Sequence record: NC_031113.1 | DNA: 44,513 nt | Origin: Escherichia phage Gluttony | Reading direction: 5' to 3' (one strand) | Program-made: the position numbers and the translations under genes | Shown: positions 2,690-44,513 of the stretch, piece after piece | Numbering within the stretch: the first letter of the stretch is position 1 | How the letters are laid out: every line of letters starts with the position of its first letter | Notes under the pieces: generated by a model | Databases searched by the model: none | What the model saw: the letters and a program-made list of their open reading frames with translations, nothing else | Told to the model about the DNA's origin: nothing

Positions 2690-3013
2690 TTACGCATAAA
2701 AGTTCGGGTCGCGTGCAACGTCTACCAGGTAAAGGTTGCTTATGCGGTTGCCGTAGTGCCCTGGAGTGCGCTGGCGGCACACAACGGCGAAGCCTGGAGG
2801 GATTGTATTGCCCGTCTCAATAATCCACGCCACGCGTGCGCCAGACAGCGTCTTGCCGTTGTATTCGATACGTGTTCCGCCATCGGCGGTATTGAGGTTG
2901 CCAATTTTGCAGCCGGTGGACTTCAGACGAATGACGCCGGTTTTGCTGTCGTAGGAGAATAACTGGTTAGTCATTGCAACCGAAAAATCGATGGCTTCGA
3001 ATGAAGTATTCAT
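2690..3013 (-). CDS. HNH_3-like (NUMOD-type) endonuclease-like protein, possibly degenerate
   Basis: RVAWIIETGNTIPPGF...NRISNLYLV resembles the HRLVW...IDH...NLRLV pattern, but the catalytic D-H is not evident. Confidence 0.45.
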   Translation of the reverse strand: MNTSFEAIDFSVAMTNQLFSYDSKTGVIRLKSTGCKIGNLNTADGGTRIEYNGKTLSGARVAWIIETGNTIPPGFAVVCRQRTPGHYGNRISNLYLVDVARDPNFYA

Positions 3014-5130: not shown

Positions 5131-5364
5131 TTATTCCGCCTTTTTCCAGACTTCAGTTTCACTGTTCCAGTTCCTTTTTGTGGCGTCGTAGTTGGTGGCG
5201 TGTCCGACGTGGACACCGGTAGCCCGGAAGCTCTTAAATTTTTGCCAGCACACCGTCAACGGCAGCGGATCATTCATGCCTGCGATAAACCATACGCGAT
5301 CGCCCGGTTTACATTCGCCCAGCTTGGTGAGTCGGTAATGTTCTTTCATCGTCATGTCTCCCAA
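5131..5364 (-). CDS. Hypothetical protein, 77 aa
   Basis: ORF track. Confidence 0.4.
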   Translation of the reverse strand: MGDMTMKEHYRLTKLGECKPGDRVWFIAGMNDPLPLTVCWQKFKSFRATGVHVGHATNYDATKRNWNSETEVWKKAE

Positions 5365-5392
5365 AAATGGCGGGACAAGCCCGCCGTATTAA

Positions 5393-5566
5393 TTATTTTT
5401 GTTCTGCACGGTAGCGGCGCTGCCGTTCGCGCTCTTTTTTATTGCGGCACGATTTGCACTCTGCCCGATACCCGTCTGGACTTCGCGCAGTCTTACCGGT
5501 GTATTTGTGGAACTGGGATAGCGGCTTTACACAGCCGCAATTACTACAACGTTTTTCTTCAATCAT
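5393..5566 (-). CDS. Small zinc-ribbon protein
   Basis: CSNCGC...CKSC cysteine pairs; start at MIEEK with a GAGGA RBS. Confidence 0.45.
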   Translation of the reverse strand: MIEEKRCSNCGCVKPLSQFHKYTGKTARSPDGYRAECKSCRNKKERERQRRYRAEQK

Positions 5567-12072: not shown

Positions 12073-12579
12073 TTAATCTTCCAGTTCGAAATAAGTTTCG
12101 ACGATTTCTTTTAGCTCTTTGTGGAAGTCTTCGACGTCGTCATCTTCCAGCTTAGCGATTGATTTGATTTCGAACGCGTCCAGCAGATCATCAAATTCGT
12201 CGTTCGCGTCGTCGTCATCACCGCCCGCGATAATCGCGGCATACTGTTTGATCTCGTCGCGCATCTCCGCCAGCGGATCGGCATCTTTCTTGCCTTTGCC
12301 CTTCGCCGGTGCTTTTTTAGACTTAGCCGGTTTTGCGTCTTCGGCGTCTTCGTCGTCATCTTCGACTACTTCTTTTTTAGCCTTACCTTTCGCCGGGGCT
12401 TTTTTAGATTTAGCCGGTTTTTCGTCTTCGTCGTCATCTTCGACAACTTCTTTTTTGGCCTTAGACGGCTTCTTGTCTTCCTGCTTACCAACGGCAGCGC
12501 CAACGGTTTCATAATGCTTAGCGATGACTTCCAGTGCTACTACGCCGCGAGTGATCAGGTTTACGATTTGCTCAAACAT
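12073..12579 (-). CDS. Highly charged tandem-repeat protein, first gene of the leftward early operon
   Basis: Start at MFEQIV with GGAG RBS; two copies of KKEVVEDDDEDEKPAKSKKAPAKGK; polyacidic C-terminus. Confidence 0.6.
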   Translation of the reverse strand: MFEQIVNLITRGVVALEVIAKHYETVGAAVGKQEDKKPSKAKKEVVEDDDEDEKPAKSKKAPAKGKAKKEVVEDDDEDAEDAKPAKSKKAPAKGKGKKDADPLAEMRDEIKQYAAIIAGGDDDDANDEFDDLLDAFEIKSIAKLEDDDVEDFHKELKEIVETYFELED

Positions 12580-12775
12580 GGTATATCTCCGATTGGTTAA
12601 GTTTAGGTGTCGGCAGTTAACTTCGTCGGTGGCCTTAACATATTGCCAGGTTACGCGTTCTCCCGTTCGGGTAGTGGACCTGGTTATATAATCACGGTTG
12701 GGAATCCTGACACTTCGATCCGGCCCCTGCGTTGCCCCTCTCCAGTTTGCGTCCTGCATCCTGTCGACGGAGTGA

Positions 12776-12981: not shown

Positions 12982-13311
12982 ATGAATATCAAAGAAGCAA
13001 TTGAAGTGTTATCTAATGCAATCCGCGGCGAAGCGGGTAAATCCTGGTATTACACAAATGCGGTGGATACTCTGTTATTTGAAGTGTCCAGATTATCGCG
13101 TGCTGAGAAGGAGCTTACCGCGAAGCTGGAATTGCTCAACGGCACGGCAGCAAGCAAGCTGCAAAAACACAATGAAGAAATGGAAGAATACAAAAAACAG
13201 GTTATCCGTCTACGTGAGGAAGGTAAATCCTGGGCGATGATTGCCGAGTTGACCGGAATTAATCAGAGCACAGTGCGCTCCTGGGTACGCAATAATAAAA
13301 CTTCTAAGTAA
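12982..13311 (+). CDS. HTH DNA-binding protein, putative transcriptional regulator
   Basis: C-terminal KSWAMIAELTGINQSTVRSWV helix-turn-helix; coiled-coil middle. Confidence 0.5.
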   Translation: MNIKEAIEVLSNAIRGEAGKSWYYTNAVDTLLFEVSRLSRAEKELTAKLELLNGTAASKLQKHNEEMEEYKKQVIRLREEGKSWAMIAELTGINQSTVRSWVRNNKTSK

Positions 13312-13321
13312 GGCCACGGCA

Positions 13322-15586
13322 ATGAGCTTAATTAAATTCGCTGTAACAAGACCCGCTAAAAAAGGCGAAAAAGCCAGGGCGGAAAACTTCCAGATGACGA
13401 CCGATGAATTTTTCGAATTTATCAAAGATGCGAAAGAGATATCGTCGGTGCATATCAACAAGACGGAAGATAAAGCCGAGTATGCGCGCCGCAAGCGTAA
13501 GGCCGATGGCATCGTAGCGTATACCAGTGACGGCTTACGCCGCAAGACCAGTGCGGTGGACCGCTCGATCCTGTTCTTCGATATTGACCGTACCGACACC
13601 CGCACCCTACGCCGCTGCCGTAAGGCTTTCATCGACGCGGGGCTGGAGCACGTATTTCACACCACAACCGGCGACCGCCACCCGCTGAAAGGCGGCACGC
13701 GTTGCGCTCGTTTCCTGGTGCTCACCGACAAGCCTGTACCGGCTGAAGACCTGGGCCGCGTCCAGTACGCACTATTACACCAACTGGGCCTGTCAGATGT
13801 GGACTTCGATGATTGTACGAAAGACACAAACCGCCTGATGTACCTGCCACACCAGCAGTCTGTTATTAAGTGCCACTACGGCAAGCGTGCCCGCGTCCGT
13901 CGTCTGCTTCGCCTGGCGGATAAGTTGGGCGTGGAGAAGGAGGAAGTACGCCGCGAGCTTACCCAGGGCGACGACGCAGTGGCAGACGGCATTCTGGACT
14001 GGTGCTTCCAGGCAGGATTCGAGGAGTTATCTTCCGGTCGCGGTTATGAAGTGCCGTGCCCGAACGAACATCTGCACAGCGGCGAAGGGTCGACGGCTAT
14101 CATGGTCAAGGATGGCGAGATCCGTTTCAAGTGTATGCACACCGGCAACGAGTGTTGCTCGGAACTGAACAGACACCAGCACCTGGCGCTACGTCTTATC
14201 GGGATCCCGGACCACCTGAACGTCGAGCCGCACAACATGTCACGTAAGCAAATCGCCGCCATCCTTCCGGGACTGGACGATGAGGAAGTGGAATCGTGCT
14301 ATGAACATATCGTTGATGCGGTCGGAGACGGCGACGAGTACGGCGTGTGTACTGATGCAGACCTGGACAACGAGCCGGTCGCACTGTTCAGTAAGCACGA
14401 CCCGATCATCGAAGGCCTGGTCAACTTCAAATCGACCTGGTATCTCGCCGGTGAGTCGAACATTGGCAAGTCGTTCTACGTGCTGGGCCAGATGGCGTCA
14501 GTATCTGCCGGTATTCCGTTCGGCGGTGCGAAGGTCGTCCAGTCTCATTGCTTCTATTTCGATGCGGAAGGTGGTGAGGCCTCCAACCAGCGTAAAGAAG
14601 CACTGCAGATCAAATATGAGCACGACCTGGACAAGCTGCACATTATCGATCTGCAATCACGCGGCTGGGATATCACCAGCAAATCCGGCTTGCGTGAAGT
14701 TATCAGCTTCATCAACCGCACCGCTAACGGCGAGCCGGTTGGCCTGGTGGCGTTCGACTCACTCAACCAGACTGTTGCGCTGCGGTCCGCCGATGCAAAA
14801 CCGTTCGACGAGAATAACGCCAGCGATATGGGTGAAGTGGTCAAAGCGCTGAAGGCCATTGCGGAAAATACAGGCGGCAGTGCGGGCGTCATCCACCACC
14901 CGGCGAAGGGTGCAAACGGCAGCAGATCTCCCCGTGGGTCCGGCGCGCTGCATGGCGCTGTCGATTCTGCGTTCTTCCTGGAACAGCCGGACGACAACCA
15001 GCCAGGTCAACTCAACCTGTATCACGAAAAATCCCGTAACGGCATCAAGCAAGCGCCGCGCGGCTTCGTCCTGCTCAAGTGCAAGGTTAAGGTGGATCTC
15101 CGCAAGTCCGAGGCGTTCGAAGCCCACCAGTCCACCAGCACCGGGCCGGACTTCGGTGACGTCGTTGCCGGTTGGGACGTCAAGCCGATTGCCTCCACGC
15201 CACGCGACGAGACTCTTTACCTCGTACCGGTCGCCCTGGCACCGTTCGCCATTGAGCAGGCAAAGGCCGCTGGCAAGGCCGCAGTTAAGGAAGAGAACGC
15301 CGCAGGACCGCGCAACGAAAAAGAGAAAGTGCTTTATGCAGCGCTGGAAAAACTGATGGAAGATAACCCGGACCATACCGGATTCAGCAAATCGGCAATT
15401 GTCCGCCAGGCTGGGCTTGCGAAAGGTGGCACATCGACGAAGGCAATTGACGATATGGTCGAGCGCGGCGTGCTCGGTTTTTATACCGATCCGCACACCG
15501 GGGCCATCTATGGGTCGTCGAATATCGTCATCAAAACGAAGATACCCATCACGCTTTCGGCGACCGATGACGACTTAAAAGATTAA
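13322..15586 (+). CDS. Primase-polymerase (AEP-like) fused to a RecA/DnaB-like ATPase; replication initiator candidate
   Basis: FFDIDRTD acidic motif, Cys/His zinc cluster, Walker A GESNIGKS, Walker B FYFDAEGG. Confidence 0.7.
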   Translation: MSLIKFAVTRPAKKGEKARAENFQMTTDEFFEFIKDAKEISSVHINKTEDKAEYARRKRKADGIVAYTSDGLRRKTSAVDRSILFFDIDRTDTRTLRRCRKAFIDAGLEHVFHTTTGDRHPLKGGTRCARFLVLTDKPVPAEDLGRVQYALLHQLGLSDVDFDDCTKDTNRLMYLPHQQSVIKCHYGKRARVRRLLRLADKLGVEKEEVRRELTQGDDAVADGILDWCFQAGFEELSSGRGYEVPCPNEHLHSGEGSTAIMVKDGEIRFKCMHTGNECCSELNRHQHLALRLIGIPDHLNVEPHNMSRKQIAAILPGLDDEEVESCYEHIVDAVGDGDEYGVCTDADLDNEPVALFSKHDPIIEGLVNFKSTWYLAGESNIGKSFYVLGQMASVSAGIPFGGAKVVQSHCFYFDAEGGEASNQRKEALQIKYEHDLDKLHIIDLQSRGWDITSKSGLREVISFINRTANGEPVGLVAFDSLNQTVALRSADAKPFDENNASDMGEVVKALKAIAENTGGSAGVIHHPAKGANGSRSPRGSGALHGAVDSAFFLEQPDDNQPGQLNLYHEKSRNGIKQAPRGFVLLKCKVKVDLRKSEAFEAHQSTSTGPDFGDVVAGWDVKPIASTPRDETLYLVPVALAPFAIEQAKAAGKAAVKEENAAGPRNEKEKVLYAALEKLMEDNPDHTGFSKSAIVRQAGLAKGGTSTKAIDDMVERGVLGFYTDPHTGAIYGSSNIVIKTKIPITLSATDDDLKD

Positions 15587-15700
15587 AATTTGCGCGCATT
15601 GGTCGCCGATATGGGGATTCCCATATCGCTAGACGATTAAATTTTGCGCGCATTGGTTGCCATTTTGAGTGTTTTTATCTGGTCGTATTGGTTGCCGTGT
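15584..15700. repeat. Direct repeats TTAAA(A)TTTGCGCGCATTGGT(C/T)GCC x2 flanking the palindrome CGATATGGG-GATT-CCCATATCG
   Basis: Read directly downstream of the primase-helicase stop; a third ATTGGTTGCC copy near 15687. Confidence 0.6.
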
Positions 15701-15744
15701 AGTGTGAATATAGTGAATAGTTATGCAGTTTTATTGCATAAAGT

Positions 15745-15902
15745 AAGCGGGACAAAAAGCGGGACAAACAAGGGGCGGGACAAAGCGGGACAGCACCCCC
15801 GTCCCGCCACGGATGGCGCGGCTTCCAGAGGAGCGGGACAGCGGGACAGCACCCCAGTCTTTCAGACTAGACGGGGGTCAATGGCCCCCCTCGTCTGAGA
15901 CT
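15745..15902. repeat. GCGGGACA iteron-like array A with 3' hairpin module; putative origin or regulatory cassette
   Basis: At least six GCGGGACA copies at about 11-bp spacing, then CAGTCTTTCAGACTAGACGGGGG...CCCCCCTCGTCTGAGACTG; near-identical to 31965..32124. Confidence 0.6.
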
Positions 15903-16062
15903 GAATAAAATCCGGGGATTGCAAAATACACGGCAGCATGATGCTAAGTGCGGTCGTCGATGAACTAGGCAACCAATGCAGGTTGTATTATGCTGAGTGA
16001 AAATGCGGTTTGCAGTCACAGCAGATAGCGATCAACTTTTTCATGCGCGTGATTAATATTGG

Positions 16063-16091
16063 TTGCACCCTGCCTGGCGCCCTGCTATATT
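16063..16091 (+). promoter_or_regulatory. Sigma70-like promoter (TTGCAC-17-TATATT) formed by two TATTGGTTGCAC copies
   Basis: Spacing counted directly; 29 nt upstream of the ATG at 16120. Confidence 0.5.
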
Positions 16092-16119
16092 GGTTGCACA
16101 CCAACAAGAGGACTGAACG

Positions 16120-16425
16120 ATGAAAGCATTAATCTGGAATTACACATCAGCGGTCGCAGCGCTCTATGAAGCGAAGCACACAAACGGCAACGCCGACCAC
16201 GCACGCCAGGCTGTAATGTTCGCGCAGCAGGCAATCTTTGCAGCGTTCGACAACATGGGCGTCAGCCTGGATGAACTGGAACCATTGCGTGTGGCAATCT
16301 GCGAGTATGCGATGAAATTCGCCCGTGAGCGTCTTGCGTACCGGTTTGGCATCGGAGAGACGGCAGTGACTAACATCGCTCGCATCACGGCTCAGCGTGA
16401 GCTACACGCCTTACTTGCGAAATAA
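16120..16425 (+). CDS. Hypothetical early protein, 101 aa
   Basis: ORF track; RBS AGAGGA. Confidence 0.5.
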   Translation: MKALIWNYTSAVAALYEAKHTNGNADHARQAVMFAQQAIFAAFDNMGVSLDELEPLRVAICEYAMKFARERLAYRFGIGETAVTNIARITAQRELHALLAK

Positions 16426-31810: not shown

Positions 31811-32124
31811 AGCGGGACAAAGCGGGATGTCCCGTTTTGTCCCGCCTCTGTAAAACTGCATATCTAATCACTCCCATTGCATAAACCAAAAGAGGGACAG
31901 GCGGGACGTCCCGTTTTGTCCCACCCCATAAATGTGCATATCTATTCGCATTTCGTGCATAAAACAAACGGGACAAAAAGCGGGACAGACCAGGGGCGGG
32001 ACAAAGCGGGACAGCACCCCGTCCCCGCCAGTGCTGCCGCTGGTTTCAGCCGATCGGGACAGCGGGACAGCACCCCAGTCTTTCAGACTAGACGGGGGTC
32101 TGGCACCCCCCTCGTCTGAGACTG
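31811..32124. repeat. GGGACA iteron-like array B with palindromic units and the same 3' hairpin module as array A
   Basis: About 14 GGGACA copies including palindromes GGGACAAAGCGGGA-TG-TCCCGTTTTGTCCC; 32055..32124 near-identical to 15833..15902. Confidence 0.65.
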
Positions 32125-32192
32125 CATAGGGTTTGTTTGAAATTCGCTGATACAATGTCAATCGGCAACTGAATAAAAAAGGGGACTGCATA

Positions 32193-34835
32193 ATGGCAGA
32201 TCAGGCAGCAGGCATCACGCTAAAGGCGGATGTTGCACAAATCAGAACGGCGAATACTGTGCTTGATTCATTCGCACAGAAATCCGAGAACACAGAAAAC
32301 AAGGTTAAGAAATTAAACGACACCCTCGGCAAATCCAAAAAGGTGACGAGTGACGCCGCGGGCGGAATGGAGAAGCTGGCGACTGAATCGCAGCGCGCTG
32401 CCGATGGCATGACGAAACAGGAGCGACTTGCCAACAGGTTAGGCATGTCGACCAAAAACCTGGGCTTTGCCTCGCGTAACGCCGCATTCCAGTTACAGGA
32501 TATCGCAGTTACGCTTGAGATGGGGATGCCGGTACACCGCGTTATGCTTCAGCAGTTACCGCAGTTAACTGGGGCGTTCGGGGGATTGGGTAACACGCTG
32601 CGTTATGTGGCGGGATTCCTCGGCCCAGTAGGGATCGGCATTGCCGCACTAACGGCAACGTTAGGCGTCGGCGTGGCAGTTACGACCCGAGCAGAAAACC
32701 AGGTCGCAGCGCTTAACAAGACGCTGGCGCTGTCGGGTAACATTTCCGGCCTCACCGCTAACCAGATCCTTGTGCTGTCTGAGAACGCTGAGCGCATGGG
32801 CTGGTCATTCCGCAAGACGCGAGACACCATTCAGGCACTGGCGGCGGCGGGCGTTAAAGCGGGTGCGGACTTCGGCGCGCTGGCGAAAGTGGTGAATGAC
32901 TTTGCGAAGGCGTCTAATCAGCCGATCTCTGACGTGGTTGAATCCATCTCAAAATTGTCGAACGACCCGGTCGGTGGACTGCGCGCACTGGCGGACCAGT
33001 ATCACGTCGTTACCGAGGCGCAGATCCAGCAGGTGCAATCACTAGTGACGGCTGGTCGAGAAACCGAAGCGGTGGCGCTGGCGAACAAAACCGCCGCTGC
33101 GTCGTTCTCCAGCATGACCAATGAGATCAAGTCCAACATGGGTACGCTCGAGCGGTCTATGAACGTCGTCACATCTGCAGCCAAATCCATGTGGGACGCC
33201 ATCCTGGATGTAGGACGCGCGCAGTCATCGAATGAGTCCGAGATGAAAGCGCGTGAATCCTTGCAGCGCATGACCACGGCTTACTATGCCGAGATGAAAG
33301 CGGTAAACGCTGCCGGTGGGGTGATGACCGAGGCGCAGAAAGCGCGTATTAACATGCTTTACAGCGAACTGGTCGCCCAGGAAAAGGTGGTGGCGTCGCT
33401 CACCCTGCGCAACCGCGCCGAGCGAGACAACGCCAGCGCCGCTGACGAAGCAGCAAAGGCGAACGAGGAGGCAAACCGCACCGCCCGCGACCGCGCCGCG
33501 TTTGAGAAGGAGTACGCAACCAACGCGAAGCGGCGAGCCGACGAGATCGCCCGCCTCAATTTGCTGAATAAGCGCGGTGTTATTAACGAGAAAGAACTAG
33601 CCGAGGCGGTGAAGCAGGTCAACGAGCGCTACAAAGACCCAGCACCGAAAAAGGCGGCGGCAATTCGAGTCGATGCCGGGCTGAAAATGCTGGAAGTCGC
33701 GCGAAGCGAATTAGCCCAGCTTCGTGAGTCTGGAAAGCAGATCGAAGCCAACGCATCGACGCAGACCCGCACGCAACGCGCGCAAGCGGCCCTTAACAAG
33801 CTGATCGCGGACCATGAACAGTTAATCGCGGCGAGCAAAGAAAGGGCGCTGACGGCAGCAGAAAAGCAGCAAATGGCGGAGTTCGAGTCGGTTAAATCGG
33901 TACGCGAGCAGATCGTCGAAGAAGCCAAATTGCTGGACGCGAAAGAGAAGCAGATCAAGGCACACGCCCAGGTCGAAGCATTCATCAAGAACCAGAACGC
34001 CGAGCTAAAAGCCACCGCGGCGGGCTATGCGCTTTCTACTCGCGAAGCGGCTAACCTGCGCGAAGAGTTGCAGCTAATTGACCGCCTTCAGCGTGCCGGT
34101 GCTAACGATACTGATATTGACAAGGCGGTGTATAAGCTGCGTGAGGTTCAGGAAGCACAGACCGGTGCTAACGCCTCATTATGGGATGGATTCAGTCGCG
34201 GGCTTCGCGATAGTGTGGATGAAATGGGTAACGGATACACGCAGATGTCGTCACTCACAAAATTCACGTTCGGTGCTATGCAGGACACGATGAACGAGTT
34301 TTTCGAGACTGGCAAGCTGAACGCAAAAGATATGGTTAAGTCCATTCTGAGCGAATTAATAAAGCTGGCTACCTCGCAGGCGTTCAAGTCCATCGTTAGC
34401 GCTTTCGGTGGCGACGGCGGCAAAAACGGATTGTTCGGCGCTATCTTCTCGGGCCTCACTAAGAATGCGGACGGCGGAGCGTACACCGGAGGCAATCTCG
34501 CGGCCTATTCGGGGCAAGTGGTGAGCCAGCCTACCTTTTTCAGTTATGGCGTCCAGGCGTTCGCTAAGGGCGCTGGGTTGATGGGTGAGGCTGGACCCGA
34601 GGCCATCATGCCACTGAAGCGCGGGCCGGACGGGAAACTGGGCGTTGCCGCGTCTGGCGCAGGCGGTGGTATGGTCGTGACGACTAACGTTTACACGGGG
34701 ACCGGTAAGACGGATACCAGTGTTGGCGGGCCGGACCCACGTACCGCGCAGGCGTTCGGCAAGCAAATCACCGAGGCGGTGAAGGCCGAGATCGTGAAGG
34801 CGATGAAACCGGGTGGTGTACTTTACAAACGATGA
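32193..34835 (+). CDS. Tape measure protein
   Basis: 880 aa, Ala-rich with coiled-coil regions, downstream of the chaperone pair. Confidence 0.85.
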   Translation: MADQAAGITLKADVAQIRTANTVLDSFAQKSENTENKVKKLNDTLGKSKKVTSDAAGGMEKLATESQRAADGMTKQERLANRLGMSTKNLGFASRNAAFQLQDIAVTLEMGMPVHRVMLQQLPQLTGAFGGLGNTLRYVAGFLGPVGIGIAALTATLGVGVAVTTRAENQVAALNKTLALSGNISGLTANQILVLSENAERMGWSFRKTRDTIQALAAAGVKAGADFGALAKVVNDFAKASNQPISDVVESISKLSNDPVGGLRALADQYHVVTEAQIQQVQSLVTAGRETEAVALANKTAAASFSSMTNEIKSNMGTLERSMNVVTSAAKSMWDAILDVGRAQSSNESEMKARESLQRMTTAYYAEMKAVNAAGGVMTEAQKARINMLYSELVAQEKVVASLTLRNRAERDNASAADEAAKANEEANRTARDRAAFEKEYATNAKRRADEIARLNLLNKRGVINEKELAEAVKQVNERYKDPAPKKAAAIRVDAGLKMLEVARSELAQLRESGKQIEANASTQTRTQRAQAALNKLIADHEQLIAASKERALTAAEKQQMAEFESVKSVREQIVEEAKLLDAKEKQIKAHAQVEAFIKNQNAELKATAAGYALSTREAANLREELQLIDRLQRAGANDTDIDKAVYKLREVQEAQTGANASLWDGFSRGLRDSVDEMGNGYTQMSSLTKFTFGAMQDTMNEFFETGKLNAKDMVKSILSELIKLATSQAFKSIVSAFGGDGGKNGLFGAIFSGLTKNADGGAYTGGNLAAYSGQVVSQPTFFSYGVQAFAKGAGLMGEAGPEAIMPLKRGPDGKLGVAASGAGGGMVVTTNVYTGTGKTDTSVGGPDPRTAQAFGKQITEAVKAEIVKAMKPGGVLYKR

Positions 34836-44133: not shown

Positions 44134-44157
44134 GAGGGGCCATACAGCCCCTTTTTA
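44134..44157. terminator. Intrinsic terminator after the tail fibre gene
   Basis: AGGGGC-CATACA-GCCCCT followed by TTTTT. Confidence 0.65.
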
Positions 44158-44513
44158 GTTTGAGTTTTCCCAGTCCATTTTGCGCCGCACCAGCGGGCTT
44201 TCGTAATATTCCTTTCCTTCCACTTCCACCAAAGGCCAGTCGTTCACAATCACGTATGGCTCCGCGATATCCTCAATCACGCCGTGCGCGCTTTGCGGCC
44301 CTAACGACACACCAACCAGGATAACACCGGCAACGCGACGGGTCAGATATTCGCGAGCGCAACGTGCCTCAACCAGCCCACGACGGATGCCGCTGGTGGC
44401 CTTAACCTCGTAGGTCCATACGGCATCGATCACATGCTCGCGGAAGTCGGGACCGGACTTCACCTTGCGCTTGCCTACCATGATAATATCGCCGCGGTCT
44501 ATGGTATTGGCAC
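44155..44513 (-). CDS. 3' part of the same wrap-around gene (44387..44513 duplicates 1..127)
   Basis: ORF track 44155..44481; the Met at 44481 has no RBS and the frame stays open upstream in the other repeat copy. Confidence 0.5.
   Translation of the reverse strand, partial: ANTIDRGDIIMVGKRKVKSGPDFREHVIDAVWTYEVKATSGIRRGLVEARCAREYLTRRVAGVILVGVSLGPQSAHGVIEDIAEPYVIVNDWPLVEVEGKEYYESPLVRRKMDWENSN
44387..44513. repeat. Second copy of the 127-bp terminal direct repeat
   Basis: Identical to 1..127. Confidence 0.9.

Follow-up and report, generated by a model that had tools for sequence, protein, structure and literature searches.

Downstream of its helicase-primase gene, Escherichia phage Gluttony (NC_031113.1) carries a module of short repeats, an AT-rich box and a GC-rich dyad that probably functions as a replication origin. 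The module was studied within the whole 44,513-nt stretch of DNA, a complete Dhillonvirus genome that is called the window in the following and to which all coordinates refer. Based on comparative sequence analysis, the segment 15700-15903 is assigned a probability of roughly 0.68 of being an origin of the self-loading initiator-helicase type. This would most likely be a known type of origin, here with a RepA-like helicase. No publication on a Dhillonvirus replication origin or on these repeats in Dhillonviruses was found. The module 3' of the helicase-primase gene is termed region A, and a second module 5' of the tape-measure gene is termed region B. The gene and the elements of region A are:

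13322..15586, + strand: helicase-primase gene (754 aa), the proposed initiator
15317..15532, + strand: C-terminal winged-helix domain (aa 666-737), proposed to recognize the iterons
15687..15695, + strand: copy of the motif ATTGGTTGC (M1), directly 5' of the AT-rich box
15700..15746: AT-rich box with 72% AT (genome, 45.5%), containing two copies of GTGAATA and GTGAATAGTTATGCAG; candidate DNA-unwinding element
15747..15848, + strand: iteron array of four direct GCGGGACA copies (15747-15792), one inverted copy, a 24-bp spacer and two abutting direct copies (15833-15848)
15855..15903: GC-rich dyad or hairpin, long and imperfect, with about 19-20 pairs
15928..15938, + strand: box ACACGGCAGCA, found just once in exact form in the genome

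The helicase open reading frame (ORF) ends at 15586 and the next one starts at 16120, leaving a gap of 533 bp; an earlier note on this DNA, which had proposed an origin here, gave about 530 bp. The conserved core within this gap consists, in this order, of one M1 copy, the AT-rich box, the GCGGGACA array, the dyad and the ACACGGCAGCA box. Beginning 161 bp past the helicase stop codon, the array contains exact copies of GCGGGACA at 15747, 15759, 15775, 15785, 15833 and 15841 as well as the inverted copy GTCCCGCC at 15801-15808, so that the “at least six” short repeats of the earlier note are all present, with an inverted one in addition. The spacing of about 11 bp, or one helical turn, that it had described is correct as an average, but there is no helical phasing, as the steps measure 12, 16, 10, 48 and 8 bp. 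Thirteen copies of GCGGGACA occur in the whole window, 12 of them in two clusters, compared to 2.1 expected from shuffled sequences, and none of 100 shuffles reached 13. Inside the AT-rich box, TGTGAATAT at 15703-15711 resembles a DnaA box and agrees at eight of nine positions with the consensus TGTGNATAA. The sequence GTGAATAGTTATGCA is kept in Cornellvirus FSL SP-031 and in lineages from IMG/VR that have other repeats.

The GC-rich hairpin predicted to follow the array was recovered as the dyad at 15855-15903, which folds as single-stranded DNA at -13.4 kcal/mol (z = -3.8 against shuffles) and is directly followed by TGAATAAAATCC. A function of this dyad as intrinsic (Rho-independent) terminator was ruled out because it lacks a T-run. 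Lineages that differ in both their repeats and their dyad sequences retain the core ACGGCAGCA of the ACACGGCAGCA box at a distance of 40-70 bp past the dyad, and the box is possibly a priming site or a site for a host factor.

The protein encoded next to the array belongs to a PHROGs family named “replicative helicase-primase,” of which the primase part is putative. Its N-terminal 340 aa contain a conserved Cys/His cluster and gave no Pfam match. The core is a RepA-like helicase of the RecA fold (Pfam AAA_25, aa 357-531) that is closest to RepA of RSF1010; a sequence search against the PDB returned a marginal match to RepA only. Residues 666-737 model as a winged helix, with a match at the level of the fold only: the AF2 model (pLDDT of about 80) has the topology H-b-H-H-b-b, and its nearest folds in Foldseek are all winged-helix DNA binders (among them linker histone, MarR family and ORC2 WH; probability 0.9-1.0, but weak E-values, the best being 0.016). 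The winged helix is followed by an acidic C-terminal tail, D-D-L-K-D (15572-15583). Among 23 sampled homologues, its last D and its L never vary, and the residues before them are mostly acidic. This tail resembles those with which T7 gp4 and SSB bind their partners.

Evidence for a connection between this protein and the repeats comes from relatives. Homologous helicase loci were drawn from IMG/VR and from annotated phages and are designated by L numbers where individual loci or contigs have to be told apart. Among them, the type of repeat tracks the C-terminal winged-helix domain and neither the helicase core nor the upstream helix-turn-helix (HTH) gene. L067 and L064/65/66 are 98-99% identical in the N-terminal region and 98-99% in the core, compared to 51% in the C-terminal domain, and they carry CCGACA and CGGACAA repeats, respectively. 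Similarly, L058/L062 and L069 (FSL SP-031)/L053 share 94-98% of the N-terminal region and 96-98% of the core, compared to 43-46% of the C-terminal domain, with CGGACAA in the former and GGGGAGA in the latter. The C-terminal domain of L067 groups with those of L059 and L070 (69-70% identical), which have the same repeat type, and the two separate CGGACAA lineages show 62-64% identity in this domain. In both comparisons, homology of the DNA breaks at about codon 665 of the helicase gene; it resumes just past the array in the L067 pair and only about 1 kb downstream in the L058 pair. The start of the predicted recognition helix likewise differs with the repeat: KGGT-ST is found with GCGGGACA, GGGN-RRR with CGGACAA, DGGRRRP with CCGACA and KGG(D/G)RY with the two GGGGA-type repeats. 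The HTH protein encoded upstream of the helicase was considered as the repeat binder and ruled out, since an identical 73-aa XRE-type protein accompanies CGGACAA, GGGGAGA and CCGACA repeats. Co-variation of the C-terminal domain with the repeats next to near-identical cores suggests that winged helix and repeats behave as one specificity cassette.

The layout itself recurs as well. Lineages whose helicases are 43-49% identical to that of the window have short-repeat arrays within the first 500 bp past the stop codon, with a unit that is specific to the lineage: TTGCGAG, CGGACAA, CCGACA, GGGATA or GGGGAT in IMG/VR lineages, in place of the GCGGGACA of Dhillonvirus. In the 530 bp downstream of the helicase genes of these IMG/VR lineages, the most frequent 7-mer occurs 5-7 times (the most frequent 6-mer 6-11 times), compared to at most four times for any 7-mer elsewhere in the locus. 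Cornellvirus FSL SP-031 has GGGGAGA repeats, seven of nine genome copies of which fall within 146 bp, and no second cluster. Most lineages share a common order of 0-2 repeats, a motif of the GTTGGCTG type, the box GTGAATAGTTATGCA..AAAAAGTGAATA, three to five direct repeats, one or two inverted repeats, a spacer, two direct repeats, a long GC dyad, ACGGCAGCA and a promoter; in FSL SP-031 and related lineages, one or two repeats precede the AT box. The TTGCGAG lineage is arranged differently, yet retains repeats, long dyad and box. In Eiauvirus eiAU-183, the C-terminus of the helicase cannot be aligned with that of the window, and a gap of 900 bp is full of TGGTTGC copies. The claim of the earlier note that an iteron array beside an initiator gene marks an origin is thus supported by comparison, through both the recurring layout and the co-variation of repeats and C-terminal domain.

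Arrays of this kind were also seen beyond the homologous loci, in unrelated contigs that surfaced in the scan for exact matches by which Dhillonvirus relatives were retrieved; the presence of the hexamer in them follows from the search, but its position beside helicase genes does not. They contain GGGACA/TGTCCC arrays of 9-19 copies with inverted blocks and a spacing of 8-10 bp, located at the 3' ends of genes for AAA_25 helicases (L014, 3356-4042; L019, 6375-6555; also L010 and L016). The L019 protein combines Prim-Pol, PriCT_2 and AAA_25 with a winged-helix-like tail, and the L014 protein combines AAA_25 with HTH_23. The arrays in L014 and L019 are likely to be origins of the same logic in other elements.

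The dyad differs in sequence from lineage to lineage, whereas its structure is kept. Folded with DNA parameters, the dyads of 10 lineages gave z-scores of -1.9 to -5.9, eight of them at or below -2.6, and the close relatives L049 and L047 show compensatory changes. These per-lineage foldings replaced a formal analysis of covariation, in which MAFFT left the lineages unaligned and RNAalifold returned just five pairs. The two strands of the dyad fold about equally well and G-T pairs account for 0-2 of about 20, which fits a dyad that acts as DNA better than an RNA element.

This symmetry bears on the main rival explanation, which is a regulatory role in transcription or at the RNA level where operons adjoin. 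Read-through would be blocked or modulated by a protein sitting on the repeats, and the hairpin in the transcript would terminate it, be cleaved by RNase III or stabilize a 3' end; region A would part early from late genes and region B would tune expression of the tape-measure protein. Such a role would agree with the intergenic position of both copies in line with rightward transcription, with the promoter-like sequences that follow each of them (16063-16091 and 32148-32156) and with a folding energy of -28 kcal/mol for the dyad as RNA. It could even coexist with an origin, as sites bound by initiators are often autoregulatory. However, no T-run follows the dyad, a terminator scan of 15300-16400 found no terminator-like site, and region A gave no hit in a consensus scan for promoters and terminators. 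Folding of the minus strand is equal to or better than that of the plus strand, no family matched in an Rfam 15 scan of the whole window at the gathering score, and the tracking of repeat type and C-terminal domain would be left unexplained. A purely regulatory function is consequently regarded as unlikely.

Region B is laid out as follows:

31812..32124, + strand: second module resembling an origin, 3' of the tail-chaperone ORF and 5' of the tape-measure gene
about 31812-31846 and 31893-31926: iteron dyads in head-to-head orientation, with an AT-rich stretch after each
31968-32070: block in common with region A (four direct copies, the inverted copy, spacer, two direct copies)
32076-32124: the same dyad as in region A

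This module, which the earlier note had overlooked, occupies a non-coding gap of 380 bp between the tail-chaperone ORF and the gene of the 880-aa tape-measure protein, and its cluster at 31812-32069 on the + strand comprises six of the seven GCGGGACA copies outside region A. About 165 bp of it, including the dyad, are a near-duplicate of 15735-15903. Region B is the richer copy, with its two additional head-to-head iteron dyads and AT-rich stretches. The module is present twice in nearly all of 157 Dhillonvirus records, and both places are already marked as mutually similar repeat regions A and B in the GenBank record of Sodalis phage SO-1 (2009); the label of the 31812..32124 module in GenBank GQ502199 is “region A,” opposite to the naming used here. 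The two regions have distinct, position-specific spacers in all phages examined, which indicates that the duplication predates the genus. Nevertheless, changes in repeats and dyad are common to the two regions of a lineage, as with CGGGACGTCCCG(C/T)CGTCCC, which the LM40P1 phages have in both and where the main lineage has GCGGGACAGCACCCC(C)GTCCCGCC. Concerted change of this kind speaks for a single factor that the two modules serve. Two weak terminator-like hits on the minus strand, located inside an iteron dyad, were returned by the consensus scan of region B and are treated as chance. Between the dyad of region B and the start codon of the tape-measure gene at 32193, an extended -10-like sequence, TGaTACAAT, is found at 32148-32156 and may represent an internal promoter for the distal tail genes.

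The presence of two copies also invites the explanation that the repeats have no dedicated function and represent a duplicated element, selfish or neutral, or a hot spot of recombination. Repeat-mediated change is indeed seen, both in the loss of 56 bp in phage EE09 and in a variable 54-bp unit upstream of the core. A neutral element is nonetheless highly improbable, as the layout is kept between lineages with helicases of 43-49% identity although the repeat unit has been replaced, as the copies hold their position-specific spacers in all Dhillonviruses yet change in parallel, and as compensatory changes maintain the structure of the dyad.

Repeat arrays are typical of terminase-binding sites, and the module could accordingly be a packaging site (pac or cos), with the small terminase subunit bound to the repeats and a genome end just downstream. 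The records of phages PTXU06, WFI, Zar3M and BMA1 open at 16018/16019, and that of 22664B1 about 26 bp earlier. The authors of the PTXU06 genome linearized contigs where most reads ended abruptly (PMC6563267), so that a physical genome end may lie about 115 bp past the dyad. A packaging site would hardly account for a second full module 16 kb away inside the tail operon, or for a repeat type that follows the helicase domain; the small terminase gene is situated more than 4 kb downstream, and the FSL SP-031 array is likewise found beside the helicase gene. Moreover, four of five Dhillonviruses were reported to be circularly permuted (PMC8407724). The cos sequence published for EE09, ATCTTAAGGG (PMC10673088), has no exact copy in the window, its one hit with a single mismatch being located in the tail genes and at chance level. 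The end of the phiEap-2 record, about 590 bp past the helicase gene, was considered as a further clue to a terminus and discarded, because it coincides with the stop codon of a small ORF. Taken together, packaging is an improbable function of the module.

Several observations weigh against an origin in region A. Phage EE09 has lost 56 bp of this region, comprising the inverted copy and two repeats, while its region B is intact. In one lineage (L054-57, L061, L063), no array was found in the DNA examined past the helicase gene, which is followed by two canonical intrinsic terminators (L054, L057: about 5295-5370) and convergent genes; true terminators at the same position also speak for the transcriptional explanation. 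As the C-terminal coding region adjoins the repeats, a single recombination event could swap both without any functional link between them. In region A, unlike in SaPIs, the AT box has no iterons on one of its sides, the whole module is part of transcription units and might have an effect on transcription as well, and some records place a genome end about 115 bp downstream of it. Finally, GC skew gives no signal at 15.7 kb. Cumulative skew has its minimum at 12546 and its maximum at 44139, which are both switch points of gene orientation, and the skew switch that the earlier note expected at the candidate origin is absent. Since skew follows the direction of transcription in this genome, it was discarded as an origin test and decides nothing.

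In the mechanism proposed for a replication origin, the helicase-primase would bind the GCGGGACA repeats via its C-terminal winged helix, and several protomers would assemble on the array of four direct, one inverted and two direct copies. The adjoining AT box would then melt, and the RepA-like hexamer would load itself. Extruded or as a single-stranded hairpin, the GC-rich dyad may aid assembly or priming. A second site for binding and loading of the same protein would be provided by the module at 31812-32124, which may be a second origin or a partner in cis, in the way that crr partners ori in P4. A more specific and rather doubtful proposal is a two-site origin, in which the helicase-primase loads at two concertedly evolving modules, maybe with looping as for ori and crr of P4, and in which winged helix and repeats are exchanged as a cassette across Dhillonvirus, Cornellvirus and their relatives. 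If true, the cassette would define replication-specificity groups among near-identical virulent phages, and co-infecting relatives would be unable to use each other's initiator.

One of the closest parallels to the proposed origin is offered by the pathogenicity islands of Staphylococcus aureus (SaPIs). SaPI Rep has a C-terminal winged helix and loads itself, and 6-12 penta- or hexanucleotide iterons are found directly downstream of rep around an AT-rich region (PMC9371898). Both systems have a C-terminal winged helix and short repeats, some of them inverted, right after the ORF and by an AT-rich region; with six direct and one inverted GCGGGACA, the array here falls within the range of 6-12 repeats of 5-8 bp. 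In SaPIs, specificity pairs the C-terminal domain with the repeats; here, the pairing is suggested by co-variation, and domain and repeats are physically linked. SaPI iterons flank the AT region on both sides in opposite directions, whereas in region A the AT box lies 5' of all repeats and a single copy is inverted; in region B, head-to-head dyads alternate with AT-rich stretches. The conserved GC dyad and the presence of two module copies are additional features of the Dhillonvirus system. Furthermore, SaPI Reps are related to the superfamily 3 (SF3)/MCM type of AAA+ proteins, whereas the core here is AAA_25 with a RepA-like RecA fold. The system would therefore work like those of SaPIs, P4 and pRN1, from whose helicases its core differs in superfamily, without belonging to their protein families.

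The alpha protein of P4 unites primase, SF3 helicase and an origin-binding winged-helix domain in one polypeptide, and short repeats are present in two separated cis regions, ori and crr, which lie about 4.5 kb apart, one of them near the 3' end of the gene. Two separated clusters of the same repeat, at 15747-15848 and 31812-32069 and both on the + strand, are likewise found here throughout the genus, though the modules are 16 kb apart. In P4 alpha, the winged helix binds the repeats of the origin and the primase is of the bacterial Toprim type (PMC4234260). The initiator proposed here, with its RepA-like core, showed no homology to P4 alpha, and the structure of the P4 origin-binding domain was not among the top 50 fold matches of the C-terminal domain.

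RSF1010 (IncQ) shares with the Dhillonvirus system a helicase of the RepA family. Its oriV depends on separate RepA, RepB' and RepC proteins, with iterons of 20 bp to which RepC binds and, for a separate primase, two ssi hairpins, one on each strand, whereas here a single protein appears to perform all functions on 8-bp repeats and a single dyad. A Pfam scan of the neighboring ORFs gave no RepC-like hit; only a 109-aa HTH protein matched DNA-binding families. In pRN1, a stem-loop origin conserved in structure but not in sequence is located 3' of the replication gene (PMC4234260). Its ORF904 protein (similar stem-loops are found in phages such as BIP-1) resembles the protein studied here in having a C-terminal winged helix and a downstream stem-loop conserved in structure only, but it is a prim-pol with an SF3 helicase and has no iterons, whereas here the dyad accompanies an iteron array.

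Self-loading initiator-helicase logic has so far been described for SF3-type proteins (SaPI, P4, pRN1) and would be extended by this origin to a RepA-like helicase of the RecA fold. The cassette pattern, in which the core stays near-identical while winged helix and repeats are swapped, offers a testable rule for a change of specificity among close relatives, and the placement of a second module inside a tail operon is unusual. Dhillonviruses are common phages of E. coli, are represented in the BASEL collection and could find use in therapy and biocontrol. A defined origin with its pairing of initiator and repeats would be useful for minimal replicons and engineered phages, for reading coverage profiles of infected cells and for origin-decoy plasmids against infection.

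Further elements of the gap lie outside the AT box, array and dyad:

15576..15661, + strand: 54-bp duplication, two AAATTT(T)GCGCGCATTGGT(C/T)GCC copies around a 9-bp inverted repeat; variable and outside the conserved core
15598 (one mismatch), 15652, 15969 (minus strand), 16058 and 16089: further M1 copies
16063..16091, + strand: promoter-like TTGCAC-17 nt-TATATT for the downstream genes, as read from the sequence; two M1 copies overlap it, and it delimits the region on the right

The direct repeats at the left end of the gap had been described in the earlier note as two 25-bp units. They do exist, at 15576-15607 and 15630-15661, but they are not exact 25-mers and extend over 32 nt each with 88% identity at an offset of 54 bp. 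The perfect 9-bp inverted repeat that they were said to flank, CGATATGGG/CCCATATCG, is found between them at 15607-15615 and 15620-15628. Their assignment to the origin, however, does not hold, as these repeats belong to a 54-bp duplication that many Dhillonviruses lack and carry a motif that occurs genome-wide. One 54-bp unit is absent in many Dhillonviruses, in which coverage of the query begins from base 76 or the matching DNA is shorter by 54 bp; with the helicase start set at 3001, the dyad is accordingly located at 5481 or at 5535.

Both direct repeats contain ATTGGT(T/C)GCC, a form of the M1 motif. Exact copies of ATTGGTTGC are located at 14 positions of the genome (991, 2664, 2681, 5623, 12783, 15652, 15687, 15969, 16058, 16089, 16623, 26213, 26227 and 42328), and 27 copies with at most one mismatch were counted, compared to 12 expected. 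They often occur in pairs 5' of transcription units in matching orientation and usually adjoin TATA(T/G)T. Given this placement, the motif has a promoter- or operator-associated appearance that is not specific to the gap, and M1 looks like a phage-specific promoter or operator element. An analogous motif, GTTGGCTG, is found at the same position in Cornellvirus-like relatives. The promoter-like sequence TTGCAC-17-TATATT remained under the threshold of the consensus promoter scan. Two of the transcription units that bear M1 have a common leader, GGTTGCACACCAACAA(C)GAGGA. A candidate binder of the ATTGGTTGC motif is the above-mentioned 109-aa protein (12982-13311, + strand), which is encoded by the first gene of the rightward operon and has a C-terminal HTH (HTH_23, Sigma70_r4_2; E-value about 1e-6). 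Public labels describe this protein as Gam nuclease inhibitor, transposase or resolvase, none of which was backed by the Pfam scan.

Among the relatives, L067 exhibits an extra 81-aa ORF with a winged-helix-like C-terminus (2628-2873) between the genes for the XRE-type HTH protein and the helicase. It is missing from the near-identical phiEap-2 (L065), and the slot is filled by different small ORFs depending on the lineage. A search for a sequenced phage with the L067-type cassette, for comparison of whole genomes, gave no match.

Over the segment 13300-16500, Escherichia phages Lust and Pride are 100% identical to the window, and more than 140 further records are 90-97% identical. Positions 1-127 and 44387-44513 of the window are identical. 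This 127-bp identity stems from overlapping assembly ends of a genome that is circular or circularly permuted and is no biological terminal repeat, so that the circular assembly measures 44,386 bp. By comparison with the annotated phage JLBYU60, the leftward genes from position 1 to about 12760 comprise replication and recombination genes, a DNA polymerase and methylases. The rightward genes start at 12982 and encode, in this order, the 109-aa HTH protein, the helicase-primase and, beyond the gap, small genes followed by lysis, terminase, head and tail functions. A tRNA and tmRNA scan of the whole window found none. An ORF of 228 aa (12073-12759, minus strand) encodes a highly acidic, lysine-rich protein that contains the internal tandem repeat KKEVVEDDDED..PAKSKKAPAKGK in two copies and matches PHROG 3127.

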